64,000 nucleotides of DNA from an uncultured Solirubrobacterales bacterium (lineage in GTDB: Bacteria > Actinomycetota > Thermoleophilia > Solirubrobacterales > JBBDJG01), in contig CAVSXO010000007.1 in the NCBI GenBank assembly GCA_963731895.1, forward strand, positions 324 through 64,323. The letters are read 5' to 3'. Under the pieces are notes generated by a model, which was not told where the DNA came from, made no database searches, and was given only the letters and a program-made list of their open reading frames with translations. The translations under genes were made by a program, and so were the position numbers. Positions 27,387-48,429 of this stretch are shown piece by piece (positions within the stretch are counted from its first letter, which is position 1; every line of letters begins with the position of its first letter).

Positions 27387-27396
27387 CGACACCGTC

Positions 27397-27419: not shown

Positions 27420-27497
27420 CGAGCGCGACCGACCGATTCGGTCTGAATTCCGCGAAATCTTTCGGAAATCGACCGAACGAGCGGGTTCCGGTAGTGG

Positions 27498-27513: not shown

Positions 27514-27586
27514 GCAGCCGGTGAGCGCGCAAAGCACGCGCGCTCTTTCTCCGCAGCGTGGAGTACGCACCCGGAGGCCGTGTCCC

Positions 27587-28664
27587 ATGAGTGAGAAGCG
27601 AGGTCGAGAGTTGATCGGGAGCAGCCAGCAGATAAAGGCATTGCAGAACCAGGTCCGCCGGGTCGCGGCCAGCGATGCCAAGGTACTGATTACAGGCGAC
27701 AGTGGTGTAGGTAAAGAGCTCGTGGCGCACGCGCTTCACAGTGAGGGCACTCGCGCCAACCAGCGCTTTGTTCCGGTCAACTGCGCCGGCCTGCCCGAGA
27801 CGCTTCTGGAATCGGAGTTGTTCGGACACGTCAAAGGAAGCTTCACCGGCGCGTTCCGCGACCAGGCTGGCAAGCTCGAACAGGCCCATCTCGGCACGGT
27901 GTTCCTCGACGAGCTCGGTGAAATGACACCTCGTATGCAGTCGCTGCTGCTGCGGTTCCTGGAGACCGGGGAGTTGCAGAAGGTCGGTGGCGATCAGCTC
28001 GGGTCAAGGTGGATGTCCGCGTCATCGCGGCGACCAATCGCGACTGCGGGCCATGGTCCGACAGGGCACGTTCCGCGAGGACCTCTACTACCGAATCCGC
28101 GTCATCCATCTGCACGTACCTCCGTTGCGCGAACGGACGCAGGACATTCCTGAGCTCGTGGAGTATTTCCTGGCGCAGTTCACCGCGGGCACATCTCTGC
28201 TCACGCGCGGCATCTCTCCGGAGGCCATGGCGCTCCTCCTGCAACACACCTGGCCCGGCAACGTGCGCGAGCTCGAGAACGTGCTCGAACGCCTCGTCGT
28301 CACCGGTTCGCACGAGATGATCCAGGTCGACGAGCTTCCGCCAGAGATACTTCCTCAAGCCGAGCAACGACCGCTTGCCACCGCGTCCTCGATGACGGTC
28401 GCAGACGAGCTCTACAAGGAACTGACACAGGAAGGCAAGTGCTTCTGGACCTCGGTGTATCCGCTCTACATGCAGCGCGAGATCACTCGCGGCAACGTGC
28501 GCGACCTTGTACGCAAAGCGCTCGAAGAAACGTGCGGCAGCTATCGCGTCGTCACACGAATGTTCAATATGCAGGACGCCGATTACAAACGGTTTTTGAA
28601 TTTTCTACGCAAGCACGATTGTCAGGTTCCATACCGGAACTATCGTCTGCAGTCCCTGCAGTGA
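27587..28664 (+). CDS. sigma54-dependent transcriptional activator without N-terminal sensory/receiver domain (paralogue 2); two frame breaks
   Basis: MSEKRGRELIGSSQQIKALQNQV starts the protein, with Walker A GDSGVGKE, GSFTGA and TVFLDELGE. It breaks at ~28,005 (VDVRVIAATNRD lies in the frame of ORF 28009..28320). It breaks again at ~28,045 (LRAMVRQGTFREDLYYRIRVIHLHVPPLRER lies in the frame of ORF 27987..28664). The C-terminal end matches paralogue 1 (DADYKRFLNFLRKHDCQV). Confidence 0.8.
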
Positions 28665-30702: not shown

Positions 30703-32240
30703 TGCTGCCAGGCAGAGTTTACACGTTCGATGACATCGCGGTCATGATCCGGCGCCGCTGGTGGCTCCTGATTCTGCCGGTCATCGTGTTCGGCGCCGGC
30801 ACCATGGCGGTGCTGGACAAGATGCCGAACAAATATCGAGCGGACACGCTGATTTTGGTCATTCCGCAGCGCGTGCCGGAATCGTACGTGCGCTCGACCA
30901 TCACCGCGCGGATCGAGGACCGGCTGCAATCGATCAGTCAGCAGCTCCTGAGCCGCACACGCCTCGAGCGCATCATTCGCGACTTCAACTTGTATGAGGC
31001 AGATCGGCAGACGTCGGCGATGGAGGACGTCGTCGAGCGGATGCGTGCGGATATCCGCGTCCAGATGGACAAGGGTGACTCCTTCCGGGTGAGTTACATC
31101 GCGACTTCGCCAACCATCGCCCAGAAGGTGACTCAGCAGCTGGCATCACTCTTCATCGAGGAAAACCTGCGCGACCGCGAGATGCTGGCTGACGCCACCA
31201 ACGCATTCCTCGACACGCAGCTGGAAGACGCCCGCCGGCGCCTCGTGGAGCAGGAAGAGCAGCTCGAGCAGTATCGCGTCCAGCATGCCGGGCAGCTGCC
31301 GTCGCAATTACAGTCGAATTTGCAAGTCTCGCAAAATCTGCAAACCCAGATGCAGGGGCTCATCGATTCGATGAACCGCGACCGCGATCGCCGACTCGTG
31401 CTCGAGCGTATGCAGCTCGAGATTGAATCGGCCCCGACCGGCGCCGCGCCCGTCAGCAACGAAGCGTCGCCGGCCGCTCAACTCGAGAACCTTCAGCAGC
31501 AGCTGACGTCGCTGGAAGCTCGACTCAAGCCCAGCCATCCCGACGTGATCCAGACGAAGGGTCAGATCCGTGATCTCGAAGCCAAGATCGCGGCGAACCC
31601 GTCAGCGGCCTACGGCCCGCCCGAGACGGGTTCGGTTGCCAACGAGGCTGCCCGGCGGCGGCGTCTCTCCGCGCTCGCAGCTGAAATCCAGACGCTCGAC
31701 CTTCAGATCGCGGACAAGGAGCAACGCCGCAAGAACTTCAACGACCAGATTGCCGGCTACGACACCCGCATTGCCGCGGTTCCGGCACGAGAATCGGAGC
31801 TTGCGTCGCTGACGCGCGACTACGAGACGTTGCAGAAGATGTACACGGATCTTCTGTCGAAGCGTGAACAGTCAAAAGTGGCGGCCAACCTCGAGCGACG
31901 GCAGATCGGTGAGCAGTTCAACGTGCTCGATCCGGCCCGCTTACCGGAAAGGCCGTTCAGCCCCAACCGGCCACTCGTCATCCTCGGTGGCCTCGCGGCA
32001 GGACTGCTCTTCGGCGCCGGCCTCGCCGGCTGGCTCGAGTATCGCGATACCTCGTTACGCTCCGAGGCAGACATCCGCGCCGCTCTGGCGCTCCCGTTGC
32101 TCGGCGAAGTCCCAGTCATCCGCACGGTCCTCGAACGGCGCCGCAAGCGGACCCAGGTCATCACCCTGTCGTTTGCCACGGGCACGCTCGTGATTGCGGC
32201 CGTGCTCATCGTGTGGAAATTCTCACTGCTCGCGATTTAG
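30702..32240 (+). CDS. polysaccharide chain-length determinant (Wzz/GumC-like, PEP-CTERM-locus subfamily)
   Basis: The ATG overlaps the upstream stop (TGATG). The N-terminal TM helix is RRRWWLLILPVIVFGAGTMAVL, followed by KYRADTLILV. A long coiled coil follows (EQLEQYRVQHAGQLPSQLQSNLQ...), then a C-terminal TM helix. The ORF is an intact 512 aa. Confidence 0.85.
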   Translation: MLPGRVYTFDDIAVMIRRRWWLLILPVIVFGAGTMAVLDKMPNKYRADTLILVIPQRVPESYVRSTITARIEDRLQSISQQLLSRTRLERIIRDFNLYEADRQTSAMEDVVERMRADIRVQMDKGDSFRVSYIATSPTIAQKVTQQLASLFIEENLRDREMLADATNAFLDTQLEDARRRLVEQEEQLEQYRVQHAGQLPSQLQSNLQVSQNLQTQMQGLIDSMNRDRDRRLVLERMQLEIESAPTGAAPVSNEASPAAQLENLQQQLTSLEARLKPSHPDVIQTKGQIRDLEAKIAANPSAAYGPPETGSVANEAARRRRLSALAAEIQTLDLQIADKEQRRKNFNDQIAGYDTRIAAVPARESELASLTRDYETLQKMYTDLLSKREQSKVAANLERRQIGEQFNVLDPARLPERPFSPNRPLVILGGLAAGLLFGAGLAGWLEYRDTSLRSEADIRAALALPLLGEVPVIRTVLERRRKRTQVITLSFATGTLVIAAVLIVWKFSLLAI

Positions 32241-33015: not shown

Positions 33016-34406
33016 ATGCTCACGTTTCTTTTACAGAGCATAAATGCCCGCGCGACGATGCTGATCGGGCTCGAATCGGTCCTGATCGTCGGATCACTCA
33101 TCGGCACGTCGATCGTTGTCGGTGGGACAGAGGCCTGGTCAGTCGTCGGTACGGCCGGCGGATTTCTGCGCGTCGCACTGGTGGCGCTGGTGTGCCAGAT
33201 CTGCCTGTACTACACCGACCTCTACGATCTCCGGATCATCGCGAACCGCCGCGAGCTCTTCGCCCGGACGTTTCACTCGCTCGCCGCGGCCTCGATCATC
33301 CTGGCGGTCGTTTACGCGCTGCTTCCGGACCTCGGCGTCGGTCCTGGCGTCGTGATCGCCGCCACGCTCGTCGTCATGGCCACGATTCCGGGCTGGCGGG
33401 TGGTCTTCGAGTCCGCCGTCCATCGCGTCTCACCACGGGAGCGGCTCGTCATCGTCGGGACTAACTCCGCGGCCGTCGGGCTGGCCTCCGAGCTGACCGA
33501 GCGTCGCTACTCGCTGGGACTGGAGATCGTCGGTTTCGTCACGGCCGGCGCCGCTCACACGCCCGGACCGGGGCCTTCCGCGTGCTCGGCGACATCGCTG
33601 ACATTCCGGCGATCATCCGCGAGCATCGAGTCGATCGGGTGGTCGTCAGCCTCGCGGATGCGCGCGGAAACCTGCCGATGGCACAGCTGCTCGACATGAA
33701 GATGCGCGGTGTCACGTTCGACTATCTCGCGTCCGTCTACGAGCGCTACACCGGAAAGATCGCGATCGAGAACCTGCGCCCCAGCTGGCTCATCTTCTCG
33801 GCCGGGTTCCGGGCAACGCCGCGCCTGCTCGCGCTCAAGCGTCTGGTCGACATCGTGATCTCGCTGGTGGGTCTTGTGGTGACTGCCCCGTTGATGTTGC
33901 TCGTCGGGTTGGCGGTGAGGCTGTCGTCTCCCGGGCCTGCCCTGTATCACCAGCAGCGCGTCGGGGAACGCGGCCGGGTGTTCACGGTCCACAAGTTCCG
34001 CTCGATGCGGACCGATGCCGAGGCCAGCTCCGGCGCTGTCTGGTCCCGCGAAGGCGATACACGCACGACAACGGTCGGTCGATTCCTACGGGCGGCACGT
34101 CTCGACGAGCTCCCACAGCTCTGGAACATCCTGCGCGGTGACATGAGCCTCGTGGGTCCCCGGCCCGAGCGTCCGGAGTTCATTCAGCAGCTGACCGAGC
34201 AGATCCCGTACTACGGACAGCGACACATCGTGAAACCCGGCCTCACCGGCTGGGCCCAGGTTCGCTACACGTACGGCTCGTCGGTCGAGGACTCGATGGA
34301 GAAGCTGCAGTACGACCTCTTCTACATCAAGAACATGTCGCTCGCCATGGACCTGCTAATCGTGCTGAGCACCGTCAAGACCGTGGTGTCTCGGCGAGGT
34401 ATCTGA
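33016..34406 (+). CDS. priming sugar-phosphate transferase (undecaprenyl-phosphate hexose-1-P transferase family); one frame break
   Basis: It has N-terminal TM helices and the linker LVIVGTNSAAVGLA, with a break at ~33,570. The bacterial sugar transferase domain follows: KRLVDIVISLVGLVV...VHKFRSMR...DELPQLWNILRGDMSLVGPRPERP...KPGLTGWAQV. Confidence 0.85.
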
Positions 34407-35562
34407 TGCCCAGGTCCGCGCCACTGACCGTCGTCCACGTCGTCGCATCGCTCGAAGTCGGCGGACTCGAGCGCGTCGTGCTCGACCTGGCGACACACGC
34501 CGACCGCACGCGCATCGCGCCGCGGGTAGTGTGCCTCGACCACCCTGGTGCCCTGGCATCACGGTTCACCGACGCCGGCATACCGGTCGAGTGTGTGCCC
34601 CACGCGAGCGGGCGGGATGGGAGCGCGGATCTTCCGTCTTGCCCGGTTACTCCGAGAGGCCAGCGCTGACGTGATGCATGCGCACAACGTCAAGTCGCAC
34701 CTGCACGGTGCCCTGGCCGCGCGCCTGGCTGGTGTGCCGGTCGCCGTGAGCACCAAGCATGGGCGGAACTTTCCAACCAGTCCGCGCGGCCAGATCGCCA
34801 ATCGGCTGGCGTGCCATCTATGCAGTGACCTCGTCGGCGTCTCGAGCGATTGCGCCGCGATCTGGCACGACGTCGAGTCGGCCAATGCCGCCAAGGTCTC
34901 GGTGATCACCAACGGCATCGATATCGATGCGTTTCCCTACTGGTCCGGGCCGGTCGATGAACCTCCCAGGGCCGTCAGCGTCGCGCGTCTCAGCGCTGTC
35001 AAGGATCCGCTGACGCTGCTCCGGGCGGCCAGGCGCGTAGTCGATCGTGAGCCCGGTTTCCGGCTCGATCTCGTCGGCGACGGCCCCTTGCGGGCCGAGG
35101 TGGAAGCGACCATCGATCGGTTGCGTCTCGGCCGTGCTGTACGCGTGCGCGGCAACCTCGATGACGTGGCCTCGGCGCTGAGCGGCGCGAGTTTCTTCGT
35201 CCTGGCCTCGACCAGCGAAGGCGTGTCGCTCACGTTGCTGGAAGCGATGGCAACCGGGCTGCCGGTGATCGCGACCCGTGTGGGTGGGACACCTGAAGTG
35301 GTCTCGCACGGAACGACCGGATTGCTGGTACTCACCACGCTCACCCGAGGAACTCGCGGACGCGATGCTCTGGATGCTCAGGCAGCCGGATGCCTGCCGA
35401 CGGATGGGGCAAGAAGCCAGACGCCGCGTCGAGGAGCGATTCAATCTGCGTCACACCGTCGACGCGTACGAGCAGATGTACTTGCGAGCGTTCGACACAC
35501 AGCAGCCGCCGGACGGGGCGGACGCCCGAGCCACAGACCGCGTACGAGGCATAACGCTGTGA
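34406..35562 (+). CDS. GT4-family glycosyltransferase; two frame breaks
   Basis: Conserved blocks are VVHVVASLEVGGLERVV, HAHNVKSHLHGA and EGVSLTLLEAMATGLPVIATRVGGTPEVVSHGTTGLLV. Breaks lie at ~34,600 and ~35,330. The true C-terminus lies in ORF 35278..35562 (PRSPEELADAMLWML...). Confidence 0.8.
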
Positions 35563-36656
35563 AGCTGCTGCTCGTGACCACCGTATTTCCATCACCTCTC
35601 CTGCCGGGGCGAGGGGCGTTCAACTACGAAATGGTCCGCGCGTTCGGTTCCTCGCACGAGGTCAAGGTCGTAGCACCAGTGCCATGGCCGATCGCACTGC
35701 GCGCGCGCCGGCAGTCGCGCGGCTGGCAACACGCCCGTCGACTGGACGGCATCGAGATTCAACACCCGGTGTATTACTACACGCCGCGCGCGTTGCGGAG
35801 CTACTACGGCGCCTTCCTGCGATGGTCGATTCGCCGCTCCGTCGATGAGATCCTGCAGGGGTTCGCGCCGGACGTCGTCGTCGGCTACTGGGCGCACCCC
35901 GACGGGCACGCCGCAGTTGCGCTCGCTCGCCGACTGGGTGTTCCGGGTGTCGTGATGGTCGGCGGCAGCGACATCCTCCTGCTCGGCCGCGAAGAGGGCC
36001 GCGCGCGCCTGATTCGACAAGTCCTCGAGGACGCCGATGCCATCGTGACGGTCAGCGAGGACCTGAAGCGGGCGTTAGGCCGCTGGGCGCTGCCCGCTGA
36101 CAAGGTTCAGGTCGTATACCGCGGCGTCGATCTGACGCGCTTCACTCCGGGATCGCGCATCGAGGCCCGCCGGCGGCTGGGAATTCGTCAGGCCGGGCAG
36201 ATGCTCCTCTACGTCGGGCATCTCGTCCCCGTCAAAGGCCTCGAGATCCTGCTTGCCGCGTGCGCCCGCGCGAAGACCCGGTCGGATTTCCACTTGTATC
36301 TGGTCGGCGATGGTCCGCTGAAGGCCAGGCTTCAACGTGTCTGCTCGGGGAGTGGCCTGACCAATCGCGTGACGTTCGTCGGCGCGGTCAGCCATGCCAC
36401 CCTGCCCGACTGGTATCGCGCCGCCGATCGAACGGTGCTCTCCAGTCGGTCGGAAGGCGTCCCCAATGTGTTGCTCGAATCGGCGGCGGCTGGTACGCCA
36501 TTCATTGCACCGCACGTCGGCGGGATTCCGGAGATCGCCGATCCGCTCGCCGATCGTCTCGTCCCACCAGGTGACCCGGATGCCCTCGCCGATGCGATCG
36601 TCGAGTCGCTGGCGGCTGCCCCTGTCGACGAGGAGCGTGAGGCCGACCTCGCTTGA
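35559..36656 (+). CDS. GT4-family glycosyltransferase
   Basis: GTG at 35559 overlaps the upstream stop (GTGA). The protein starts VKLLLVTTVFPSPLLPGRGAFN, and its C-terminal half contains SRSEGVPNVLLESAAAGTPFIAPHVGGIPEI. The frame is continuous within ORF 34548..36656. Confidence 0.8.
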   Translation: MKLLLVTTVFPSPLLPGRGAFNYEMVRAFGSSHEVKVVAPVPWPIALRARRQSRGWQHARRLDGIEIQHPVYYYTPRALRSYYGAFLRWSIRRSVDEILQGFAPDVVVGYWAHPDGHAAVALARRLGVPGVVMVGGSDILLLGREEGRARLIRQVLEDADAIVTVSEDLKRALGRWALPADKVQVVYRGVDLTRFTPGSRIEARRRLGIRQAGQMLLYVGHLVPVKGLEILLAACARAKTRSDFHLYLVGDGPLKARLQRVCSGSGLTNRVTFVGAVSHATLPDWYRAADRTVLSSRSEGVPNVLLESAAAGTPFIAPHVGGIPEIADPLADRLVPPGDPDALADAIVESLAAAPVDEEREADLA

Positions 36657-36767
36657 GGACGCCGCGCGTCAACTGCTCGCCGTGTTTGCATCGACGATCG
36701 CCACTGCCCATCGACGCGCGCCGGCGGCAATGAACGTGCGCGCCGCGCAATCCGAGGGGGCGCGGTC

Positions 36768-37334
36768 ATGACACTCGCCCAGCTGGTCCTCGGCGACATC
36801 CGCGCGAAGGCTGAGTGGAACTACGAGCGCACGGATTGGAAGGCCCTGCTCAGGACGCTGGCGACCGACGGCACGGCCGCCATGGTGCTGTATCGGCTCA
36901 TGCAATGGGCCACGCGACGGCATCTGACGCCACTCGCGTGGATATTCAACAAGCTGAACTCGGTCTTGAACAACTGCATCATCGGCTGTGGTGCGAATTT
37001 CGGGCCTCGTCTGGTCCTCATCCACGCAACAGGGGTCGTCATCAACAGCTCCGTCCGTGGCGGTTCTGACATCCACGTCGAGCATCAGGTCACGATCGGA
37101 GCCGACCGCCGGCTGGCGCCCGTGCTGGGCGATGGAGTGTTCATCGGCGCGGGCGCGAAGATCATCGGCAGCGTACACATAGGTAGCGATGTGCGCGTCG
37201 GTGCGAACGCCGTCGTCGTGCACGACGTGCCGCCGCACTGCACGGTCGTCGGCGTGCCGGCGCGCATCGTGCGGCGCCGATCTCCGGACTCCGCCGGCGA
37301 TAGTCACCAGCCGTCGGCGATGGTTTTGATGTAG
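36768..37334 (+). CDS. serine-acetyltransferase-like hexapeptide O-acetyltransferase
   Basis: Left-handed beta-helix repeats are present (GANFGPRLVLIHATGVVINSSVRGGSDIHVEHQVTIGA...VLGDGVFIGAGAKIIGSVHIGSDVRVGANAVV). The N-terminus is helical and CysE/EpsC-like. Confidence 0.7.
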   Translation: MTLAQLVLGDIRAKAEWNYERTDWKALLRTLATDGTAAMVLYRLMQWATRRHLTPLAWIFNKLNSVLNNCIIGCGANFGPRLVLIHATGVVINSSVRGGSDIHVEHQVTIGADRRLAPVLGDGVFIGAGAKIIGSVHIGSDVRVGANAVVVHDVPPHCTVVGVPARIVRRRSPDSAGDSHQPSAMVLM

Positions 37335-37357
37335 CCGACGGGAATGTAAAGGCGTTC

Positions 37358-38510
37358 ATGACGACTATCGAGATCATGTTCTGGGTGTGTGTCGCGCTGA
37401 TTGTCTACGCGTACGCCATCTATCCGATCGTCGTCTGGGGACTGTCACGACTCTTCGGTCGGCTGGCCACGAGCCCTGCGCTTGCCGAGGACGACCTGCC
37501 GTCGGTGTCGCTGCTCATCGCCGCGTACAACGAGGAGCAGGTCATCGCGCCACGAATCGAGAACGCCCTCGCGCTCGACTATCCGGCCGACCGCCTCGAA
37601 GTCGTCATCGCCTCCGACGGCAGCAACGATGCGACAGCGCGGATCGTCAGCGCATTCGAAGACCGGCGGATCCGCCTCCTCCAGTCGCCGCTCCGGCGAG
37701 GGAAAGCCACCGTCCTCAACGCGGCGTTCCGGCACGTGCGCGGCGACATCGTTCTTCTCTCGGACGCCAACACGTTCACCGACCGCAGCGCGCTCCGGCA
37801 CATCGTCAGGTGGTTCGAGAACCCGCGCGTCGGGATCGTGTGCGGCCACCTCGTGCTCACCGATCCCGCAACGGGCCGCAATGTCGACGGCCTCTATTGG
37901 CGCTACGAGACCTTCCTGAAAACCTGCGAGGGACGCCTCGGTGCGCTGCTCGGTGCCAATGGCGCCATCTACGCCATCCGCCGATCGAGCTTCGCGGGTA
38001 TCTGGAATGACACGATCGTCGATGACTTCGTGATTCCGCTCGTGACTCGCCTGCGCTCCGGCTGCGAGATCGTCTACGACGATCATGCAATTGCCTACGA
38101 AGAGACGCCCCACGATTTCAGCACGGAGTTCAGCCGCCGCTCCCGCATCGGCGCCGGGGGCTTCCAGAGCATCATCCGGCTGCGAGGGTTGCTGAACCCG
38201 GGCCAGGGCTGGACCGCGTTCACGTTCTTCTCGCACAAGGTCCTTCGCTGGCTGTGCCCGTTCCTGCTGATCGCGCGCCTTCGTCACCAATCTCGCGCTC
38301 ATCAACGTTCCGCTCTATCAACTGACCATGACTGTGCAGGTCCTCGGATATGGACTGGCACTCCTCGGCCTGGCCACAGGCACACATCCCGGGTTCAGGC
38401 CGCTGCGCCTGGCAACGATGTTCACCGCCATGAACGCGGCGCTGCTCGTCGGCTTCTGGCGCTGGGCGTCGGGTGGCCAGCAGGGCGTCTGGCAGCGGAC
38501 GGCGAGGTAG
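37358..38510 (+). CDS. membrane GT2-family glycosyltransferase; one frame break
   Basis: It has an N-terminal TM helix and a GT-A core (SLLIAAYNEE, ASDGSNDAT, LLSDANT), followed by FSRRSRIGAGGFQ. A break lies at ~38,275. The last ~75 residues lie in the frame of ORF 38328..38510. Confidence 0.8.
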
Positions 38511-38511
38511 C

Positions 38512-39261
38512 GTGATCGCCGAGCTTCGTCACACCTTGTCCGTCTCGGATTCTCGCGTCGCGCGGGCCACTCGCGGGGTGCGGCGAGCGGTGTCTACGTT
38601 CACGCTGCCCGCCGTCACCGGCCGCATCGCCCGGCCCGTGTTGTGGTGCTTTCTGACAGCCAGGGGCATGGTGTTCTTCCTCTATCGTGTCTTCGTGTGC
38701 GAGCCGCTCTTCAAGGCGTCCTGCCGGTCCTGCGGACGCGGCGTGCGGACCAATGTGTACCTCCACTGGATTCAGGGACGCGGCAACCTCGTCGTCGGGG
38801 ATGACGTGCTGATGGACGGCAAGTGCAGCATCACTTTCGCCGCTCGCTACGTCTCGGATCCGACGCTCGTGATCGGGGATCACACCGGCATCGGGCACGG
38901 ATGCCGGTTCTCGATCGGCAAGCGGATCACCATTGGACGGCACTGTCGGATCGCCAGCGACGTGTGGATGTTCGACTCGTCTGGCCATCCGCTGGATGCC
39001 GAAGCACGACGCGCGGGACTCGCCGCTGCAGACAGCGATGTGCGGCCGATCACCATCGGGGACAACGTCTGGATTGGCGGCCGCGCGATCATCCACCCGG
39101 GCGTCACCATCGGAGATCACAGCGTGGTATCGGCTGGGGCGGTCGTGATGAACGACGTGCCCGCACACGCCGTCGTCGCAGGCAATCCCGCGCGCGCCGT
39201 GATGGGGACCAGCCGTCCGATGGTGGAGCGCAACACGGGCGGCGAACGGCTCAGAGCCTGA
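38512..39261 (+). CDS. hexapeptide-repeat acyltransferase (maltose/galactoside O-acetyltransferase-like)
   Basis: GTG at 38512 inside ORF 38473..39261. The LbH repeats read IGHGCRFSIGKRITIGRHCRIASDVWMFD ... ITIGDNVWIGGRAIIHPGVTIGDHSVVSAGAVVMNDVPAHAVVAGNPAR. Confidence 0.75.
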   Translation: MIAELRHTLSVSDSRVARATRGVRRAVSTFTLPAVTGRIARPVLWCFLTARGMVFFLYRVFVCEPLFKASCRSCGRGVRTNVYLHWIQGRGNLVVGDDVLMDGKCSITFAARYVSDPTLVIGDHTGIGHGCRFSIGKRITIGRHCRIASDVWMFDSSGHPLDAEARRAGLAAADSDVRPITIGDNVWIGGRAIIHPGVTIGDHSVVSAGAVVMNDVPAHAVVAGNPARAVMGTSRPMVERNTGGERLRA

Positions 39262-39279: not shown

Positions 39280-39540
39280 ATGCACGCCGAGTCGGCAAAT
39301 GAACACGACCTTGCACGAGTCATGACACTCGTGCGCGAGACCGGGCACATCGGGGACATCACGCCGGATGAAGATTTCTACGACGCCGGTTTCACGTCGC
39401 TCCGATCACTCGAGCTCCTGCTGCAACTCGAAGCCGAGTGGGAGGTCACCATTCCCGACGAAGAGTTCATCGTCGCACGGTCCGTCCGGTCGCTGGGCGA
39501 GCTGATCGTCCGTCTCAAGGAGAGTACTGCGTGCGCTTGA
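39280..39540 (+). CDS. acyl/peptidyl carrier protein
   Basis: The 86-aa ORF has the PP-binding-type helix-II region DFYDAGFTSLRSLELLLQLEAEW, with Ser in the phosphopantetheine position and Thr replacing the usual Asp. Confidence 0.7.
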   Translation: MHAESANEHDLARVMTLVRETGHIGDITPDEDFYDAGFTSLRSLELLLQLEAEWEVTIPDEEFIVARSVRSLGELIVRLKESTACA

Positions 39541-40721
39541 TGGTCGCGCTGGAGGGCCGCGCGCACGAGATGGCTCAGGAAGAGATTCAGAAGCAGGTCG
39601 CGTATCTGTCGCCGGACATCCGCAACGTACGATTCGATGCCGATGGCGCCGTACTCGAGTGCGACGTCCCGGACGAGCAGGCAGAGCGGCTCGGGCAAGA
39701 CGTGCGCGCGCTCGCCGATCGGATGCAGCGAAGCCTCCGGCGGCTGCAGCGCAAGGTGATCTTCCGAAGCGCGTCGTTCGAAAGCCCGGTGTTCCGTGGT
39801 GCCGGCACCCTCGACGATGTCCACATCCTGGGCACTGGTCAGGTCGCGCTGACGGGACTTCCGCTGGCGGTGTTCATGTCACTCGACCGTCTCTTCACCC
39901 AGCTCGGCGACATCTGGGATGCGCAGCCCATACGAACGCCCACACTGATTCCGACGCAGGTCCTGGCCCGGTGCGACTACTTCCGTTCGTTTCCGCAGAA
40001 CGTCACGTTTGCGAGCCATCTGCGCGAGGATCTCGAGGTCATCGATAGCTTCAGGGCCGAGGCACGACGACGCTGGACCGCCTCGACGATCGCGCGCTCG
40101 GCCGACATGGTCACCCCTGAGGTCTGCCTCTCGCCAGCGGCTGTTACCACATCTATCACCTGCATCAGAACCAGACCATCCCCGCCGCGGGAACTGCGCA
40201 CGGCGTGTGCGGCTCGTGCTTCCGCTACGAGGCAGGCGAACACCAGCGACCTGCGCCGCCTCTGGGACTTCACGATGCGTGAGGTCGTCTTCATGGGACA
40301 CGGAGAGGACGTGCTGCAGCGCGGACGACCGCGATTGCAGAGGATCGCGGATCTCCTGGACCAGCACGGTTTCGGGTCGAAATCCGAACGGCCAGCGATC
40401 CTTTCTTCATCGCACCGGATGCCGTGGCCAAGACGTACTTTCCAGCTCAGCTCCGAGACGAAATACGAGATTTCGCTGGTGCTGCCCGGACGGCCGAGCG
40501 GGTGGCGGTCGGCTCGCTGAACTATCACACCGACTTCTTCGGGCGCGCGTTCACGATGCACGTGGACGGCCGGAGGGCCGATGCACAGCGTCTGCATCGC
40601 GTTCGGCCTCGAGCGCTGGGTGCATGCCTTCCTGGCGCAGCACGGCGAGCATCCGGAAGACTGGCCGGATATCATGCGGGACGCGCCCGAGTTTGCCTCC
40701 AGGGTATCGGCGACATGCTGA
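39531..40721 (+). CDS. class II aaRS catalytic-core homologue lacking a tRNA-binding domain = candidate amino acid--[carrier protein] ligase; about 6 frame breaks
   Basis: The start (GTG 39531 or ATG 39540) overlaps the ACP stop. Conserved blocks are IRTPTLIPTQVLARCDYFRSFPQ, VCLSPAA|CYHIYH, motif-2-like GVCGSCFRYEAGE|TSDLRRLWDFTMREVVF, ASDPFFIAPDAVAKTYF|QLSSETKYEISLVLPG|VAVGSLNYHTDFFGRAF, and motif-3-like CIAFGLERWVHAFLAQHG. A bar (|) marks a frame change. Confidence 0.6.
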
Positions 40722-41707
40722 ATGCTGCTGTGCGCTCGGCGAGACGTGGGAGCCCTCCGCTCGGGCATCCAGTTCCACGACGCGGACCCATCCGCCCATG
40801 CCACCGCGGCCGCCGCGCTTCTGCGACAGGCATGGGGGCCGCCCTGTCTTCGCTACTCAGATTGGTACGTCAGGTGGCAACTGGCGTTCCCGGGAGCCGT
40901 GCGGCCACGAGCGGTGCTCGCAACCGATGGGCGGCGGACAATCGGATTCGTCGCCTTGATTCCTCGGCAGGTCCTGATCGGCGATCGAGTCGCGATCATC
41001 TACGTGTTGTCGTTCTTCTCGGTGCATCCTGACTACCGTGGTGCGCGCATCGGAACCGAGCTGGCCTCTCGGATCGTGGAGATCGCGGATCGTCCAATCG
41101 TCACCTTTACCGAGCCGGGCGCGCCATCGGAACGGCCGCTGGTCCGGTCGGCTACTGCCAGAGGATGGACGTTCAAACGGCTGGCCACGCTCCGGACTAT
41201 GCAGGCGGCCCCGGCCGCCGGGCACACTCGACGGCCATCGCGCGACAAGCCACGGTGGAGGAGTTCGTCGCGGCCGCGAAGCCTCGTGGCGGCGCGACGG
41301 TCGTCTGGAGTCAGCCGACGATCGAGCAGGCCAGGCACTACGCTAGAGACCCGCGCGGGGCCTACTTCGCGATTGCGCAAACCACGGGCGGCGTGACGCT
41401 GGGTGCCGCGCTGGTGGTGCGTTCCGAGGTCCTCACCCTCGCTGGCGCCGAGGACGTGCCATCGCTGGATGCGGTGTACCTTCATGACCATCACGCGGAA
41501 GCCCTCGGTGCGCTTCGCGCGTTTGCGCTCGAGCGTAGCGGCGGCCAATCGATCGTGACGGCCCCGAACCTCGACACGGTGCCACCCGATGCGATTCGAC
41601 TGGCTGGCTTCCGTGCGACCCAATCGGCCTTCAACGTCGCTGTGCTGAGTGACCCGAGCGAGCCAATCACCGAGCACACGACGTCAACCAACCTCGAGGT
41701 GTTCTGA
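40722..41707 (+). CDS. two-lobed GNAT/FemAB-like acyltransferase; one frame break
   Basis: ATG at 40722 directly follows the ligase stop. The first lobe has a GNAT loop (GFVALIPRQVLIGDRVAIIYVLSFFSVHPDYRGARIGTELASRIVE). A break lies at ~41,215. The second lobe lies in ORF 41165..41707. The size (~328 aa) and architecture resemble the FemAB-related proteins of PEP-CTERM loci. Confidence 0.5.
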
Positions 41708-41711
41708 GACC

Positions 41712-42851
41712 GTGAGACTTCCGCGCAACGCTCATCTCTGGCTTCCGGGACTTTTACGGTCTCGCCGCGACCGGGTGCGGGTGTCCAGGGATGGGCCGGT
41801 CGATGTTCTGCTATGCATGGCAGACCACTTCGAACCGGCGCATGGGGATCCAGGACTTACGGTCGAGCGCGCCCGTATGGACGCATGGTGCGAGCGCCTG
41901 CCGAAACTGGCAGCTCGATTTGCCGATGCCGATGGACGGCCGCCCCGGCACACCTTCTTCTTTCCCGCCGAGCAGTACCGGCGTGAGCACCTGGATCGGT
42001 TGTCGGCTCTCTGCGAGGCCGGCCTCGGCGAGGTCGAGATCCATCTGCACCACGACGGCGACACCTCGGAGGGCCTGCGCAGCACGCTGCTCGAGTTCAA
42101 GACGCGGTTAGCCACGGACCATGGGCTGCTGACGTCCGCACCCGACGGCACCGTGCTCTACGGCTTCATCCATGGCAACTGGGCGCTCGACAATGCACGA
42201 CCTGACGGTCGTCGCTGCGGAGTGAACAACGAGCTCACGGTGCTGCGCGAGACCGGCTGCTACGCCGACTTCACACAGCCGGCTGCTCCGGACATTTCGC
42301 AGACTCGCACCGTCAACTCCGTCTACTACGCAGTCGACGATCCCGATCGCGCGCGGTCGCACGACTTCGGCATCGCCGCCAAGGCCGCGCGGACACCACC
42401 GAGCGACAGTCTGCTGCTGGTCCAGGGCCCGATCGCGTTGGACTGGGATCGTCGCGTGTGTGGTGTGGCTCCGGGTCTGGACGTTGGTGCAATCGACGGT
42501 TCACCGGGCTATGCGCCAGTCCTGCGACGATTCCGAAAATGGGTCGACGCCGGCATCGGAGTACATGGCCGCCCCGAGTGGGTGTTCGTCAAGCTCCACA
42601 CCCACGGCGCACCCGAGCGAAATGCAGCAGTCCTGCTGGGTCCGAAGATGGAGGCCCTTCACGAGGACATCAATCGCGAGTTCAACGATGGCCGCCGCTA
42701 TCGTCTGCACTACGTGACCGCGCGTGAAATGGTGAACATCGTGCGCGCCGCCGAAGCCGGCGCGCACGGGAACCCCGGACGCTATCGCGACTACCTTCTG
42801 CCGCCCCCCCCTGCGGCACGGGTGAAGAAGAAGGCAGTGTTGACCGATTAG
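41712..42851 (+). CDS. putative polysaccharide deacetylase-like / metal-dependent hydrolase (divergent)
   Basis: GTG at 41712 inside ORF 41649..42851. Candidate metal/acid-base residues lie in VLLCMADHFEP, GEVEIHLHHDGDT and YGFIHGNWALDN. Further conserved-looking blocks are CGVNNELTVLRETGCYADFTQPAAP. The function call is weak. Confidence 0.35.
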   Translation: MRLPRNAHLWLPGLLRSRRDRVRVSRDGPVDVLLCMADHFEPAHGDPGLTVERARMDAWCERLPKLAARFADADGRPPRHTFFFPAEQYRREHLDRLSALCEAGLGEVEIHLHHDGDTSEGLRSTLLEFKTRLATDHGLLTSAPDGTVLYGFIHGNWALDNARPDGRRCGVNNELTVLRETGCYADFTQPAAPDISQTRTVNSVYYAVDDPDRARSHDFGIAAKAARTPPSDSLLLVQGPIALDWDRRVCGVAPGLDVGAIDGSPGYAPVLRRFRKWVDAGIGVHGRPEWVFVKLHTHGAPERNAAVLLGPKMEALHEDINREFNDGRRYRLHYVTAREMVNIVRAAEAGAHGNPGRYRDYLLPPPPAARVKKKAVLTD

Positions 42852-42870: not shown

Positions 42871-45210
42871 ATGATTTTTGGCGTCGGCCTTCGCACTCTC
42901 ACGACCATTCCCGTGCTCTGTCTGCTTCTCGCGTCGGGTGCAATCCGCGAAACGGCAGTCGACGCCGCAGTCTCACCCACGGGTCGTTCGCCAAAGCTTC
43001 TCTGGACGGCGGAGCGACAAGGCGTGTGGGCGCGCATGAAAGCCGACTACGAAATGAACTCGCGGTCGATGCCCGCCCAGTGGTACGGAATCCTGAAAAG
43101 GAACGCCGAGTGCGCGTGCAGGTACGGCGACAACGGGATCTGGGCAACGGTGATGTACCAGATCACTGGCGATGCGAAATACGTGAATCTCGCCTGGACA
43201 CGCCTCACCGCAGGTTTCCTGAAGTCTACGGGCAGGGCGCTGGTGGGTAACTACGCGCGCGAATACTCCCAGGAGATGGTGCTGATCTACGACTGGCTGT
43301 ACCCAGGGCTCACCGCCACTCAGCGCCAGACGTTCCTGTCGAAACTCAACGAGATGTTCTCGCTGCTGGCAGCAGGAAACCAGTACACCGGCAAGGTCCC
43401 GATTCGAACGGCCGACACGGATCAGACCGTTGGCAGCTACTTCGGCTTTGCGTTTCTCGCGCTCGCCACCGGCGACCACAACCCGGCCGGGCTGGAGCTG
43501 TTCTCGAGCAGCTTCATCGGCGGCCTCGATGCCACCGGCTCCGGACGAACCACGCTCCGTAACGCCATCAAGCAGTACGTCAGCGAGCTCGCGGCGGGCG
43601 GCGAATGGATGGAGGGATCGGAATACAACCTCGGGACCGTGCGCCTGCTCGCGATCGGAGCCGAAGGCGTCAAGACAGCGACAGGAGTCGACCACTTTCC
43701 CGAAGTCACCACCTTCCTCGACGATGCTGCGCTCAGACAGGTCTACATGATGACGCCGGATCTCAAAGGGTCGGTCCAATGGGGAGACGAGCAGAATCCC
43801 CGGCAAGTCGCCAGCCGTCTGTTCTCGTGGCAGACGACCAACGGCATCCTCGCGGGGTTGACGCAGGACGATACGAGGAGCGGACCGTACATTCAGCAGC
43901 TCGTGTACGACATCACCGAACAGTACGGCGTGACGGGATACCTCTCGAGCGAGCCATGGGCCCGCTTCTTCCTCCTGTTCAATCCGTACGCGCGCATGAC
44001 CACCCCTGATTCGTTGCCGCTGTCACGCTTCTCGCCCGGCCAGGGCATGCTCGTGGTCCGTGATGGCTGGACGGACGACAGTACGCTTGTCGCCGTTCAC
44101 ATGCCGATCAAGCATTCGGCAGTCGATCACCAGGTCAGCTATTTCGGTGACTTCCAGATATACCGCAAGGGCGCCTGGGCCGTGACTCACCCGCTTTCGT
44201 ACGCAGGTCCCTCGCTCCGCGGCGACGGTACCAACTCGATGATCATCGGGAGCTTCTCCTCGATGGCGCAGTACAAGCGTGTCACCGCCTACGAGCACGG
44301 CGCGGGCGGCAGCTACACCTACATCGCCGGAACGACCGCGGGGCAGAAGTCGTTGGAGGGCGCCTACGACCCGCCGCCCACATTCCTGCACGAGTGGACA
44401 CGCAGCGTCGTGTATCTGCCGTCGAAGGACAAGCGCTCCGATACGCTCGTGGTCTACGACCGGACGAATGCGCACCATCCGATGGAACTGCCAAAGTTCG
44501 AGCGCTACCGTCGCGCCAGCCCCGATGAACAGAGCGCGATTCTCGACATGCCGGCACTGAAACAGTGGGTGATTCATTCACCGGTCGAGCCCGAGTTGTC
44601 GTCCGACGCTATCTCGTGGGCTACACCTGAAGGTCAGCAGATCGAGGTAACCACTCTCCTGCCGCAGCAACAGCGTCGCCTGGTGTACGACGAGCGCACG
44701 CTGTGGACGAGCAGGGTCCCCCTCGCCGAGCGAAAGTGGCAGGTTCGAGTCGTGCCGAGCGTCGACCAGCAGTGGGACACCTTCCTGAATGTCGTCCAGG
44801 CGTTCGATGCGCCGACGACATTGTCGAACGGTCTGCTCCGCAGCGAGGACAAGAATGCCGAGGGCGTCCTGGTGCGACGCGGCGGCCACGACGACATGGT
44901 CCTGATGTTCAACGCCTCATCGGGACAGGCGCTTCCGGATACCCGCAAGGGAGCGCTCTCGGTCTTCGACGCCAATGCGGACTCGATGCTGAATGCCGTG
45001 CGGTTGCGGTCGAACAGTTACGTCGTGCGGTGGACCTCGGCCAGTGCCGCGACCGGTGTGCTGCTCTTCGATCTGGTGCCATCGAAAAGCTGGCGCGTGA
45101 GTGTTGACGGCGGCCCGGAGGCCGCGCTGACGGTCAGTGCCCAAGGGGTTGGCTCGGTGAACATCACAGGCGTCGGCGCTCACTCGGTGAGCGTGACGTC
45201 TACCCCGTAG
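42871..45210 (+). CDS. secreted polysaccharide-lyase-like protein (alginate-lyase-type toroid + heparinase II/III-like C-terminal domain), paralogue A
   Basis: It has a signal peptide (LTTIPVLCLLLASGA). The N-terminal half reads WATVMYQITGDAKYVNLAW...NYAREYSQEMVLIYDWLYPGL. The C-terminal half reads VDHQVSYFGDFQIYRKGAWAVTHPLSYAGP. The ORF is an intact 779 aa. The fold assignment is by resemblance only. Confidence 0.45.
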   Translation: MIFGVGLRTLTTIPVLCLLLASGAIRETAVDAAVSPTGRSPKLLWTAERQGVWARMKADYEMNSRSMPAQWYGILKRNAECACRYGDNGIWATVMYQITGDAKYVNLAWTRLTAGFLKSTGRALVGNYAREYSQEMVLIYDWLYPGLTATQRQTFLSKLNEMFSLLAAGNQYTGKVPIRTADTDQTVGSYFGFAFLALATGDHNPAGLELFSSSFIGGLDATGSGRTTLRNAIKQYVSELAAGGEWMEGSEYNLGTVRLLAIGAEGVKTATGVDHFPEVTTFLDDAALRQVYMMTPDLKGSVQWGDEQNPRQVASRLFSWQTTNGILAGLTQDDTRSGPYIQQLVYDITEQYGVTGYLSSEPWARFFLLFNPYARMTTPDSLPLSRFSPGQGMLVVRDGWTDDSTLVAVHMPIKHSAVDHQVSYFGDFQIYRKGAWAVTHPLSYAGPSLRGDGTNSMIIGSFSSMAQYKRVTAYEHGAGGSYTYIAGTTAGQKSLEGAYDPPPTFLHEWTRSVVYLPSKDKRSDTLVVYDRTNAHHPMELPKFERYRRASPDEQSAILDMPALKQWVIHSPVEPELSSDAISWATPEGQQIEVTTLLPQQQRRLVYDERTLWTSRVPLAERKWQVRVVPSVDQQWDTFLNVVQAFDAPTTLSNGLLRSEDKNAEGVLVRRGGHDDMVLMFNASSGQALPDTRKGALSVFDANADSMLNAVRLRSNSYVVRWTSASAATGVLLFDLVPSKSWRVSVDGGPEAALTVSAQGVGSVNITGVGAHSVSVTSTP

Positions 45211-46049: not shown

Positions 46050-48429
46050 ATGCGGCAGCACAATCGACTCCCCCGTCTTCCTCATCAGCCGACGCCGCGA
46101 CATCGCAGGCTGTCGCTGACGATGGCCGCGCTCCTCCTCGCGATGGGTTCGGCGACGATCGTCGAGTATCCGGAAGCGCGCCAGGCGCCGGGAGGCGTCC
46201 GGCTGGCCCAACTGGGTTCGCCTACAGGGCGCGAGCCACGTCTCATCTGGACGCCAGAGCGCCAGGCCGTCTGGTCCCAGATGCGCGCCGACTACGAAGC
46301 GAGTCCTGCGTCGCCTCGCACGCTGGGCGGTCAGGTACTACAAGCTCATCAAGACCAACGCTGAGTGCAAGTGCCGCTACGCGGACACCGGCCTTTGGGC
46401 CACCTTGATGTTCCAGATCACGGGCGATCGTCAGTACGTCGAGCTGGCGTGGAACGAGGTGGAAACGTCCTTCCTGAAGCTCACGGGACGCAGTCTCACT
46501 GGCAACTACGCGCGCGAGTACGCCCTGGAGAATGTCCTGCTCTACGATTGGCTCTATCCAGCCCTCTCGAGCGCCCAGCGCTCCGCGTTCCTCGCGAAGT
46601 TGAATGAGATGTTCACCGCGGCGCTCACGAACCCGTCGAGCCCGGCCGCTCCCGTTCGCACGGCCGACTCCGACCAGACCGTGGGTACCTATTTCGGTCT
46701 CGCCTTCCTGTACGCCGCAACCGCCGATCACAATCCACAAGCGACCGAGTTCATCAATCGCCCGTACGTCGGCGGGTTGAACGCGACCGCCCGCGACCGA
46801 TCGACGCTTCGGAATGCAATCCTCGATTACGTGACCATGGCCAACGGCGGCGAATGGATCGAGGGGACCGACTACAACCTGGGAACGGTGCGCCTGCTGC
46901 TGCTGGGAGCCGAAGGAGTCCGGACCGCGACGGGCCGGCAATACTTCCCCGAGATCGCGCGATGGATCTCGAGTGCCGTGACTCGCCCGGTCCACCTCAT
47001 CACTCCAGACCTGAAGCAGTCGTATCAATGGGGCGACACCGAGCATCCGGGCATCTTCCAGGGGAGGCTCTCGGCGTGGCAGACGACCAACGGCATTCTG
47101 GCCGGACTCGGCGATCCCGCTACGGCTCCATACGCACAGGACCTGGTGTCGCGGCTGGCCACGCGATATGGGGTCGCCGGTTATCAGACCGCTGAGCCGA
47201 TGGCTCGGATGTTTCTCACATACAACCCGTATGCGCCGGCTGCTCCGAGCAGCGCCCTGCCACGGGCGTGGTTTGCCCAGGGACAGGGCTTGCTGGTCGT
47301 CCGCAACGGCTGGGACGAGAACTCCTCGATGTTCGGCGCGCACTTTCCGGCACAGCAGCCCTACGTCGATCATCAGGTGGCCTACGTTGGGGACTTTCAG
47401 CTGTATCGAAGAGGGGCGTGGGCCGTTACTCACCCACTCACTTACGGCGGGCCTGGCATCACTGGGGAAGGCGTCAACACGTTGCTGCATTCGGGCTTCG
47501 GCTCGATGCTCGAGTTCCGCGACGTGGCGGGGGCCGAATGGGATGCCGCGGGCACCTACGCCTACGTCGCAGGGACCACGGGAGGACAGAAGTACGCGGA
47601 CAGCTACTACCAGCCGCCTCCGACGTTCCTCCACGAATGGACCAGGAGCCTCGTGTATCTGCCGGCAACCGGCGGAGGCGCCGATGCGATCGTCGTCTTC
47701 GATCGAAGCCACGCGGAACATCCTCGTCAGCTTCCCAGGTTCGAGCGCTACTCGGCGACAGATCGCAACACCATCATGGGCTCGCCTGCCCTTCGACAGT
47801 GGATCATCCACATGCCGGTGAACCCATCAATCTCCGGTGACACGATCGCGTGGCAGACGCCAACCGACGCAGTCAGAGTCACCATGCTGCTGCCACGGGA
47901 GCGGACGGTCAGCACGGTCGATGAATCTCAGAAATGGGCCGCCGCCACGGTTCGCGACGATCAGCGGAAGTGGCACGTGCGTATCGCGCCGGCAGCGGAA
48001 GGGGCATGGCACACGTTCCTGAACGTCGTCCAGGCGTACGGTGGTTCGGCGCCGGCAGACGTCAATCTGGTGACCTCGTCAGACCGCGTCGAAGGCACTG
48101 TGGTTCACAGAGCCGGACAGCCGGACATGGTCGTGCTCTTCAATGCCGCGCCAAGCTCGCGCATCGAAGGACTGCCCAATGGGCTCGGAGCCTACAACGC
48201 CGGCAACCCCGGTCAACTGCGCAGTGCGCGGCTGCGCTCGACCGGCTTCAGTGTCCAGTGGCAGAGTTCAGCGGGATCAACGCGCGTGATCGTCGCTGAC
48301 CTGGATCCGTCACGGACGTGGCAGTACCGATTGAACGGGGGTGACTCTCGCACGCTGCGAGTATCGATGTCTGGCGTGGCGACGATCGACGTCACGGGTG
48401 CGCGCAGTCACACACTTGCCGTGTCGTGA
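46050..48429 (+). CDS. secreted polysaccharide-lyase-like protein, paralogue B; one frame break
   Basis: ATG at 46050 (MRQHNRLP...LTMAALLLAMGSA) lies in the frame of ORF 45891..46364. A break lies at ~46,325, after which the sequence follows ORF 46405..48429. It is collinear with paralogue A throughout. Confidence 0.45.

Follow-up and report, generated by a model that had tools for sequence, protein, structure and literature searches.

A conserved bacterial module of a carrier protein, an aminoacyl-tRNA synthetase-like ligase and two acyltransferases that may aminoacylate surface glycans

What becomes of an amino acid once it has been loaded on a carrier protein? The question is raised by a stretch of 64,000 nucleotides (hereafter the window) from contig CAVSXO010000007.1, assigned to an uncultured Solirubrobacterales bacterium. 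Here a carrier protein (ACP), a ligase resembling class II aminoacyl-tRNA synthetases (aaRS), an acyltransferase of the GNAT superfamily (gene 3) and a fourth, cytoplasmic protein (gene 4) are encoded one after the other in an exopolysaccharide (EPS) locus, and an earlier reading of the same DNA (the original prediction) had taken the four genes to be one cassette. Amino acid:[carrier protein] ligases (aa:CP ligases) were reportedly first described in 2010. According to a 2022 review, the biological role of carrier-protein aminoacylation by these enzymes is still unknown (PMC9437257), which agrees with the original prediction's statement that the fate of the aminoacylated carrier was unresolved. 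We find that the ACP, the ligase and gene 3, together with a left-handed beta-helix (LbH, hexapeptide-repeat) acyltransferase encoded just upstream, form a conserved four-gene module that appears to load an amino acid on a small carrier and to hand it over to the two acyltransferases. Our best reading is a carrier-protein-dependent aminoacylation of glycans, in which we infer which amino acid is used, what accepts it and how the two transferases share the work.

The four genes of the proposed cassette do lie on the + strand where they had been placed, and every peptide string quoted from them is present. Preceded by AAGGAGG, a strong site, the ACP gene (39280–39540, +) encodes an 86-aa phosphopantetheine-binding protein that passes the Pfam model PF00550 (E = 1.5e-10, 41.6 bits against a curated cutoff of 20.8). 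Its string DAGFTSLRSLELLLQLE, encoded at 39382–39432, includes the phosphopantetheine-attachment serine in a GFTS context (codon 39397–39399). Among all solved carrier proteins, its top relative is 4h2s_C (E = 7.5e-6), the "aminoacyl carrier protein 1" that is the cognate partner in the Bll0957 system, and the serine of GFTS lines up with that of GLTS in 4h2s_C. The ligase gene (39531–40721, +; 394 aa in intact orthologues) begins with a GTG and runs 10 nt into the stop of the ACP gene, an overlap that had been noted originally.

After correction of its frame (see below), the ligase had as its top NCBIfam match NF005479, "amino acid--[ACP] ligase" (E = 2.7e-41); the SerRS_MJ families came next, the methanogen-type seryl-tRNA synthetase (SerRS) model NF002120 ranking behind NF005479 with an E-value of 7e-29. 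Its core also matched Pfam PF00587 (tRNA-synt_2b; 34.7 bits, cutoff 29.3). Bradyrhizobium Bll0957 (3mey) was the best match in the PDB, both for the single sequence (E = 5.9e-27) and for a profile of the ligase family (E = 2.8e-36, 128.5 bits), ahead of the methanogen-type SerRS structures 3w3s (98.4 bits, E = 4e-27) and 2cim (71.2 bits). The class II motifs fRyE and GLERW are present, and so are the two quoted strings, GVCGSCFRYEAGE at 40202–40240 and CIAFGLERWVHAFLAQHG at 40593–40646, the latter in a different frame of the raw sequence from the former. The Cys/Glu/Cys zinc site suspected in the original prediction was borne out: the ligands align with those of Bll0957 (in LSPAaCY or LSPAvCYH, CFRrE or CFRyE, and HtgCVAFG or HSvCvAFG), and not one of the 25 aligned homologues departs from C204, E233 and C353. 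By homology, the two genes thus encode an aa:ACP ligase and its cognate carrier, translationally coupled, as had been predicted.

This assignment has to be set against the label of seryl-tRNA synthetase that JGI pipelines attach to the family. A genuine but unusual SerRS would account for the tRNA-synt_2b core and for the kinship with the methanogen-type enzymes in NCBIfam and in the PDB, and the ~105 extra residues conserved at the N-terminus of the ligase subfamily could be counted in its favour. This region had no match in the PDB or Pfam and did not align to the SerRS N-domain, so that the predicted lack of a tRNA-binding domain holds at the level of what sequence can detect, with an N-terminal segment that matches nothing. 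What speaks against a SerRS is that the ligase is consistently nearer to aa:CP ligases (128.5 vs 98.4 bits in the PDB comparison), that in 71 of the 78 loci described below it is translationally coupled to a carrier, that its N-terminal region has no sequence likeness to the SerRS tRNA-binding domain and that it is placed in accessory loci. We consider that the enzyme is almost certainly not a SerRS.

The ligase family comprises more than 892 matches, nearly all of 375–405 aa, in Acidobacteriota, Planctomycetota, Armatimonadota, Myxococcota, Gemmatimonadota and other phyla, with a mean column identity of 72% across the 25 aligned homologues. The window ligase scored 141.5 bits with NF005479, below the equivalog cutoff of 357. 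Because of this score and of the unmatched N-terminal region, we assign it, on sequence grounds, to a new subfamily of aa:CP ligases and not to the orthologues of Bll0957.

The partners of this pair were sought in 78 loci, 74 of them genomic and fetched with the ligase profile, and four metagenomic. Their open reading frames (ORFs) were searched with iterated hidden Markov models (HMMs), and a partner was counted when a copy lay within 3.5 kb of the ligase. An ACP was present in 71 of the 78 loci, a gene 3 homologue in 61 and an LbH acyltransferase of ~250 aa in 57, where it typically spans −1000 to −300 from the ligase start. The conserved unit, found in at least six phyla, consists of the LbH acyltransferase, the ACP, the ligase and a GNAT resembling N-myristoyltransferases (NMTs; gene 3), in a fixed order relative to the ligase start (LbH at about −1000, ACP at about −230, gene 3 at about +1180). 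Such recurrence in dozens of unrelated genomes, with the same gene order, is not chance. The linkage of ACP, ligase and gene 3 that the original prediction had proposed is strongly conserved (61 to 71 of the 78 loci); its four-gene composition has to be amended, as it missed the LbH partner directly upstream of the ACP. We found neither a curated family for the module nor a publication about it.

Two features of the conserved set bear on how the carrier is relieved of its cargo. At least eight Bryobacterales loci retain ACP, ligase and gene 3 and have no LbH gene within 3.5 kb; because the other three persist there, gene 3 should be able to off-load the carrier. Within the conserved set of the 78 loci, no thioesterase or condensation domain was found. 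The contig of P0001 seemingly has no gene 3.

Gene 3 (40715–41707, +; 330 aa in the sister assembly described below) has its true start at the ATG at 40715, so that, like its orthologues, it shares 7 nt with the end of the ligase gene. The original prediction had let it start directly after the ligase stop, at an ATG (40722) that proved to be artefactual, the result of one nucleotide inserted at 40741. Pfam gave weak GNAT matches confined to the N-terminal half, a match to the NMT family PF01233 that stays below the cutoff (E = 0.0015, 18.8 bits, cutoff 25) and no match to the C-terminal NMT domain PF02799. The AlphaFold2 (AF2) model of P0121, an orthologue 88% identical to gene 3, has two GNAT lobes (pLDDT 90.5, pTM 0.88). 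When it was compared with the PDB by Foldseek, 48 of the 50 matches listed were N-myristoyltransferases (TM-scores of 0.59–0.67), and the remaining two were chains of one uncharacterised Enterococcus protein; E-values across the listed matches ran from 2.4e-15 to 1.6e-12. With a profile of the gene 3 family against PDB sequences, NMTs again led all GNATs (E = 6e-9). Fold model and profile together identify gene 3 as a remote, tandem-GNAT homologue of the eukaryotic N-myristoyltransferases.

The prediction had described gene 3 as a two-lobed GNAT related to FemAB. The two lobes stand, and the protein is not a single-domain acetyltransferase. A FemAB identity was rejected: gene 3 had no match to PF02388 or TIGR03019 at E ≤ 0.1 in Pfam and NCBIfam, no Fem structure was among the 50 listed fold matches, and PF02388 was carried by none of the 37 homologues from a word-based search. 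The label "FemAB-like" is right at the superfamily level only. With its 37 proteins, the word-based search made the family look narrow; iterative HMMs on the fetched loci revealed its presence across phyla. Literature searches on the function of the subfamily or on bacterial NMT homologues returned nothing relevant.

Catalysis by NMT relies on its C-terminal carboxylate, a base that takes up a proton from the ammonium group of the glycine. The chain end of the window protein (...TNLEVF-COOH) is conserved, and in most gene 3 homologues the chain stops at one alignment position, its last residues reading T-N-L-E-[VI]-x-COOH; a group from Gemmatimonadota has a divergent end. This is consistent with, although not proof of, a similar role of the carboxylate as a base.

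Gene 3 is also found in multiple copies. In a Gemmatimonadaceae locus (L065, 4800–7800), three tandem paralogues follow the ligase, and in two Bryobacteraceae loci (L017 and L019) a paralogue sits in the LbH slot, about −1270 to −320 from the ligase start. These sets recall the FemX/A/B series, and several residues or acceptors may be served by them.

The second acyltransferase of the module, the LbH protein (38512–39261, +; 249 aa), is encoded directly upstream of the ACP. It matches Pfam Hexapep PF00132 (E = 6.8e-12, 45 bits, cutoff 27), and its best NCBIfam matches are MAT (maltose O-acetyltransferase), LacA (galactoside), WcaF and WbbJ, all under their equivalog cutoffs. We class it with O-acetyltransferases of the maltose/galactoside, WcaF or WbbJ type, a subgroup given by best matches only.

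Gene 4 (41712–42851, +) encodes a 379-aa cytoplasmic protein of a large uncharacterised family, with at least 7901 unannotated homologues. The His/Asp clusters on which the original prediction had based a deacetylase-like function are present (DHFEP at 41823, HLHHDG at 42042 and HGNWALDN at 42171), and D38, H39, E41, H111, H113, H114, H154 and H298 are invariant, a set compatible with a metal site or a metal hydrolase. Even at an E-value of 5, no Pfam or NCBIfam model matched, the CE4 family PF01522 included, and a profile of the family found nothing among PDB sequences. The AF2 model (pLDDT 92.4) had one significant fold match in the PDB, the Bombyx chitin deacetylase 5z34 of family CE4 (E = 3.5e-5, TM-score 0.49), followed by weaker matches to GH38, GH57 and 3lm3 barrels (E ≥ 8e-3), of which GH38 and GH57 belong with CE4 to one superfamily of glycoside hydrolases and deacetylases. 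The fold is thus a barrel with a distant likeness to NodB/CE4.

As a member of the module, gene 4 was rejected by its co-occurrence across the loci. It belongs instead to the EPS backbone of the window locus: in another locus (L080), genes for two glycosyltransferases of family 4 (GT4s) and one of family 2 (GT2) are followed directly by gene 4, and the module is missing. Since this backbone exists without it, the module of the window looks like an insertion between a GT2 gene and gene 4. The GT2 (37358–38510, +, with one artefactual indel at 38276) is a membrane protein distantly resembling PgaC, IcaA and NodC; its orthologue at L003:7831–8985 matched TIGR03937 (PgaC_IcaA) with an E-value of 2.3e-21 and NodC with one of 1.3e-12, both far below the cutoff.

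Are these genes alive? In comparison with three intact orthologues, the ligase gene carries 11 frame-breaking indels (40059, 40069, 40100, 40140, 40238, 40320, 40335, 40374, 40442, 40490–91 and 40574), all between 40059 and 40574 and thus packed into 514 nt, and gene 3 carries two (40741 and 41197). Frameshifts were judged by reading selected genes in three frames and by DNA alignments. The raw frame-0 ORF of the ligase stops at 40520, and its truncated 329-aa product is in the public record as P0024. If the frame breaks were real, the window cassette would consist of decayed pseudogenes, and the dense packing of the indels in one gene, the truncated public ORF and an excess of substitutions in the same stretch could all be read in this way. 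Indels, however, occur in patches along the window. Among housekeeping-type genes, that of an ABC transporter (5700–7500) has at least eight frame changes, and those of LigD and a sigma factor (12000–14800) are broken too. In the EPS locus (33016–38510), the breaks extend to the GT2, to both GT4s and to the priming transferase. Several genes of 1–2.3 kb are free of indels. In its corrected frame, the indel zone of the ligase holds no stop codons and has a ratio of nonsynonymous to synonymous substitution (dN/dS) of 0.13 relative to a Vicinamibacteria orthologue (L005), like the neighbouring genes (0.07–0.135). Moreover, a sister assembly (L081; ENA ERZ25039504, contig_15158), 98.94% identical to window positions 30706–51684, is unbroken at each of the 11 sites in the ligase gene and the two in gene 3, and has 11 indels of its own in a 779-aa gene whose window copy is intact. 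Because indels are found window-wide, dN/dS is 0.13 without stops and L081 is intact, we attribute the frame breaks of the ligase and gene 3 to assembly errors; dead genes, which the original prediction had named as a case that would refute it, are therefore not what we see. The pseudogene reading, which is very improbable, was rejected on the dN/dS and on the intact ligase sites of L081.

The substitutions between the window and L081 are themselves uneven: 39 of the 178 fall in a 300-nt patch (40300–40600; ~13% vs a background of 0.6%) that coincides with the indel cluster. With 16 synonymous to 16 nonsynonymous codons, half of them silent, the patch looks less like decay than like a divergent or recombined allele or a strain mosaic.

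In the window, the module stands between the GT2 and gene 4 of an EPS locus that, by family scores, is of the XrtA/PEP-CTERM type, and the original description of a genuine exosortase locus containing wecB is upheld. The exosortase (62362–63408, −) matches PF09721 with an E-value of 1.1e-70 and is followed by EpsI (61685–62365, −); the respective marker models were passed clearly (TIGR02602, 205 bits vs 105.6; TIGR02914, 139 vs 42.8), the XrtA model being missed just barely (207.6 vs a cutoff of 208). A PrsT-like TPR protein (59367–61688; 287 bits, cutoff 312) and an XrtA-type chain-length determinant (30702–32240; 270 vs 279) likewise score just below their cutoffs. WecB (56927–58063) matches PF02350 with an E-value of 2e-103. 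From ~25 kb on, the locus also has two sigma-54 activators, a Poly_export protein, a ParA-like kinase, a TIGR03013-type priming transferase (457 vs a cutoff of 393, measured in the orthologue of L003), GT4s of the stp2 and stp3 types, a flippase and a Wzy-like protein. The two adjoining activator genes head the locus (26280–28664, +), the second being split by a frameshift; they resemble PEP-CTERM-box response regulators (TIGR02915, E = 1e-75, below the cutoff).

Behind gene 4 lie two paralogous genes for proteins of ~779 aa (42871–45210 and ~46100–48429, both +) with ~49% mutual identity, which match no Pfam family and have a short, weak likeness to the heparin lyase HepB (E = 2e-10). The pair is also kept in the related loci L002 and L003. 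In L001 (13345–19082), gene 4 is followed by genes for an acyl-CoA dehydrogenase, an 88-aa protein, an AMP-binding ligase and an 860-aa GDSL-type protein; the 88-aa protein is possibly a second carrier protein, in which case these genes would be a second carrier-type acylation set in one EPS locus.

The window is not uniform in composition. Positions 1–24000 have 72–77% GC and encode a WhiB-family regulator, an actinobacterial hallmark (PF02467, E = 4.5e-16; peptide at 16114–16152, +). Positions 25000–64000 have 60–66% GC and hold the sigma-54-regulated exosortase EPS locus, whose nearest relatives, of the phylum Acidobacteriota, are in Vicinamibacteria. The two parts were probably joined by chimeric assembly; that the contig carries a foreign island of very large size is less likely.

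Is the link between module and EPS general? In a neighbourhood test that counted polysaccharide genes within 10 kb, so that an exosortase as distant as that of the window (20 kb) was beyond reach, genes for glycosyltransferases, flippases, Wzy or WecB were found in most non-myxobacterial loci, and polysaccharide genes in most loci of Acidobacteriota and Gemmatimonadota and in some others. The Polyangiaceae, nearly all Sorangium, had no polysaccharide gene in any of their 19 loci. In Sorangium cellulosum So ce56, the module stands alone among unrelated neighbours (within locus L069, NC_010162, record positions 9,125,105–9,146,262). The predicted linkage to EPS loci is thus frequent, and, judged by polysaccharide genes within 10 kb, an obligatory EPS or exosortase linkage was rejected, the Polyangiaceae modules being free-standing.

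These elements can be combined into a mechanism. The zinc-dependent ligase would use ATP to activate a small amino acid, assumed to be Gly or Ala by analogy with Bll0957 and Atu2573, and would bind it as a thioester to the phosphopantetheine arm of the carrier with which it is translationally coupled, a loading step that is supported because both partners are homologous to a biochemically and structurally characterised pair. One of the two acyltransferases conserved alongside, or both, would then use up the aminoacyl-S-ACP. We tentatively favour, at somewhat less than an even chance, that the NMT-like GNAT off-loads the aminoacyl group to an amine, here on an EPS amino sugar and possibly provided by gene 4, and that the LbH enzyme O-acylates or caps. 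The GNAT, which is coupled to the ligase, would bind the aminoacyl-S-pantetheine in its N-lobe and form an amide with a primary amine in the inter-lobe cleft, the C-terminal carboxylate serving as general base as in NMT. In the window locus, this amine would most probably belong to an amino sugar of a cytoplasmic lipid- or nucleotide-linked EPS repeat unit (the original prediction had proposed a de-N-acetylated ManNAc as a candidate), and gene 4 may free it by de-N-acetylation, in a logic like that of NodC, NodB and NodA–NodF. The LbH enzyme would then O-acylate the EPS unit or cap the new alpha-amine, and the outcome would be a tRNA-independent decoration of a surface glycan with amino acids. 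Our preference for off-loading by the GNAT is mainly due to the Bryobacterales loci, where ACP, ligase and gene 3 persist and LbH is missing.

Several observations weigh against this scheme. The ligase falls below the equivalog cutoff for aa:CP ligases and carries an extra conserved region. A deacetylase function of gene 4 is plausible but weak, as it depends on a single fold match of low TM-score, and gene 4 is next to the module only in Vicinamibacteria-type loci. As for gene 3, its NMT profile homology lies in the acyl-CoA-binding N-lobe, and a G-x-G loop like that of GNAT motif A is retained in 70–90% of the homologues, so that it could use an acyl-CoA donor and not aminoacyl-ACP. In four to five loci (L011, L057, L073, L076), its slot is taken by an Fmt/ArnA-N-like formyltransferase (NF005414, E = 1.2e-32), which suggests that an amine of this pathway is N-formylated and makes amine-capping a better fit for gene 3 than off-loading. 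The acceptor, finally, need not be EPS, because the Polyangiaceae modules are free-standing and because, in a Singulisphaera metagenome-assembled genome (L049, 11219–19660), the ACP–ligase pair is directly followed by a 2813-aa ORF resembling nonribosomal peptide and polyketide synthases (NRPS/PKS), a likeness judged by eye on the N-terminal sequence only. Another large ORF (2181 aa) lies close to the pair, upstream, in L068. A megasynthase may be what the aminoacyl-carrier supplies in some lineages.

The chief rival to off-loading by the GNAT exchanges the roles of the two transferases: the GNAT would N-acylate, from an acyl-CoA with an acetyl or longer chain, the alpha-amine of a Gly or Ala that is still carrier-bound or already transferred, and the LbH or another enzyme would off-load the aminoacyl group, N-acylated or not, to a sugar hydroxyl or amine. 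The N-lobe homology agrees with such a capping role, as do the Acetyltransf_1 match, which spans motif A with its G-x-G loop, and the formyltransferase, itself an amine-capping enzyme. The natural acceptor of NMT is the alpha-amine of glycine, and Gly or Ala is the substrate of those aa:CP ligases that have been characterised. LbH enzymes also include the acyl-ACP users LpxA and LpxD, and the LbH gene is co-conserved in 57 of the 78 loci, among them the free-standing Sorangium modules. Yet capping would leave the Bryobacterales loci without an obvious off-loader, the LbH protein belongs with the MAT/WcaF O-acetyltransferases, whose usual donor is acetyl-CoA, and not with the LpxA/D type, and motif A is just moderately conserved across the gene 3 family. 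We see this exchange of roles as possible, if on the unlikely side. It is less probable still, and in our view unlikely, that the module makes a small molecule or lipid (an N-acyl amino acid, a lipoamino acid or an NRPS/PKS starter) and is placed in EPS loci for co-regulation only. All 19 Polyangiaceae modules are free-standing, with unrelated neighbours in So ce56, large ORFs accompany the pair in L049 and L068, NMT relatives handle long acyl chains, and N-acyl amino acid synthases have been linked to exosortase loci in 2011 work, as cited in passages of PMC7293339 and PMC11631085. A product of this kind is difficult to reconcile with the position of most Acidobacteriota and Gemmatimonadota modules, and of several others, tightly packed on the same strand between glycosyltransferase, flippase and polymerase genes. 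It is also at odds with the absence of a thioesterase or condensation domain from the conserved set. Gene 3, moreover, had no match in NCBIfam, a collection that presumably includes the exosortase-associated acyltransferase model TIGR03694.

Glycan aminoacylation could also have a more specific purpose. By analogy with the Fem-built glycine bridges that serve as sortase acceptors, the module might put amino-acid handles with a free alpha-amine on the EPS or another envelope glycan, as the long-sought nucleophile with which an exosortase would join PEP-CTERM proteins to it, and a bacterial NMT homologue would build them from the aminoacyl-S-carrier protein. We regard this as a long shot.

How does the module compare with known systems? 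Its closest relatives are the pairs around Bll0957 and Bll6282 in Bradyrhizobium and Atu2573–Atu2571 in Agrobacterium, with which it shares the truncated methanogen-type SerRS core, the class II motifs and the Cys/Glu/Cys zinc site and, with the Bll0957 system (3mey, 4h2s), an adjoining small carrier protein with its serine in a G-x-T/S-S context. Unlike these, the window ligase and ACP, at ~25–30% identity to their counterparts, combine the N-terminal extra of ~105 aa and a sub-equivalog score with fixed LbH and NMT-like GNAT partners and a frequent glycan-locus context. The 15-year-old question of what aa:CP ligases are for thereby becomes directly testable in a cultured organism.

Gene 3 is like eukaryotic NMT in its tandem-GNAT build, its best fold and profile matches and its conserved chain end, and unlike it in being bacterial, ~10–12% identical, ~330 aa long as against at least 400 aa, and encoded in an operon with an ACP and a ligase; if our reading is true, the NMT fold has a bacterial function. 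FemX, FemA and FemB, also of the tandem-GNAT superfamily, take the aminoacyl group from a macromolecular carrier and attach it to an amine on a precursor of the cell envelope. TIGR03019, the PEP-CTERM-associated family related to FemAB, is met repeatedly in exosortase loci. The Fem donor is aminoacyl-tRNA, whereas that of gene 3 would be aminoacyl-S-ACP. The Nod core offers another parallel, with a PgaC/NodC-like GT2, a cytoplasmic protein with a NodB-like fold, an N-acyltransferase and a dedicated carrier; NodA itself appeared as a weak Pfam match of gene 3 (E = 0.085) and as the precomputed domain of a homologue (P0144). In the window, however, these likenesses are weak or at the fold level only, the carrier would bear an amino acid and not a fatty acid, and gene 4 is not co-conserved.

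The nearest functional analogues are DltABCD, which D-alanylates teichoic acids, and AlmEFG, which adds glycine to Vibrio lipid A. As proposed here for the module, both use ATP to pass a small amino acid by way of a dedicated carrier to an envelope glycopolymer or glycolipid without tRNA. Because Dlt and AlmEFG share this logic, the concept of a tRNA-free path from amino acid to carrier to envelope polymer is not categorically new, and the tRNA-independent route that the original prediction had taken to be undescribed is known in principle, if with another class of ligase. No homology to Dlt or Alm was seen beyond the carrier protein (DltC, E ~2e-3 with the window ACP). DltA and AlmE are loaders of the ANL superfamily, and the transferases of these systems are MBOAT/DltD or, for AlmG, LpxL-like proteins. 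What is new in the module is the enzymology: loading would fall to a class II aaRS core and not to an ANL enzyme, and the partners are a tandem GNAT of the NMT-like kind and an LbH protein. If the reading is true, the module would be a candidate for the genes behind the amino-acid substituents that many bacterial glycans are reported to carry, and it would stand beside Dlt and Alm as a third enzymology for tRNA-independent aminoacylation of the envelope.

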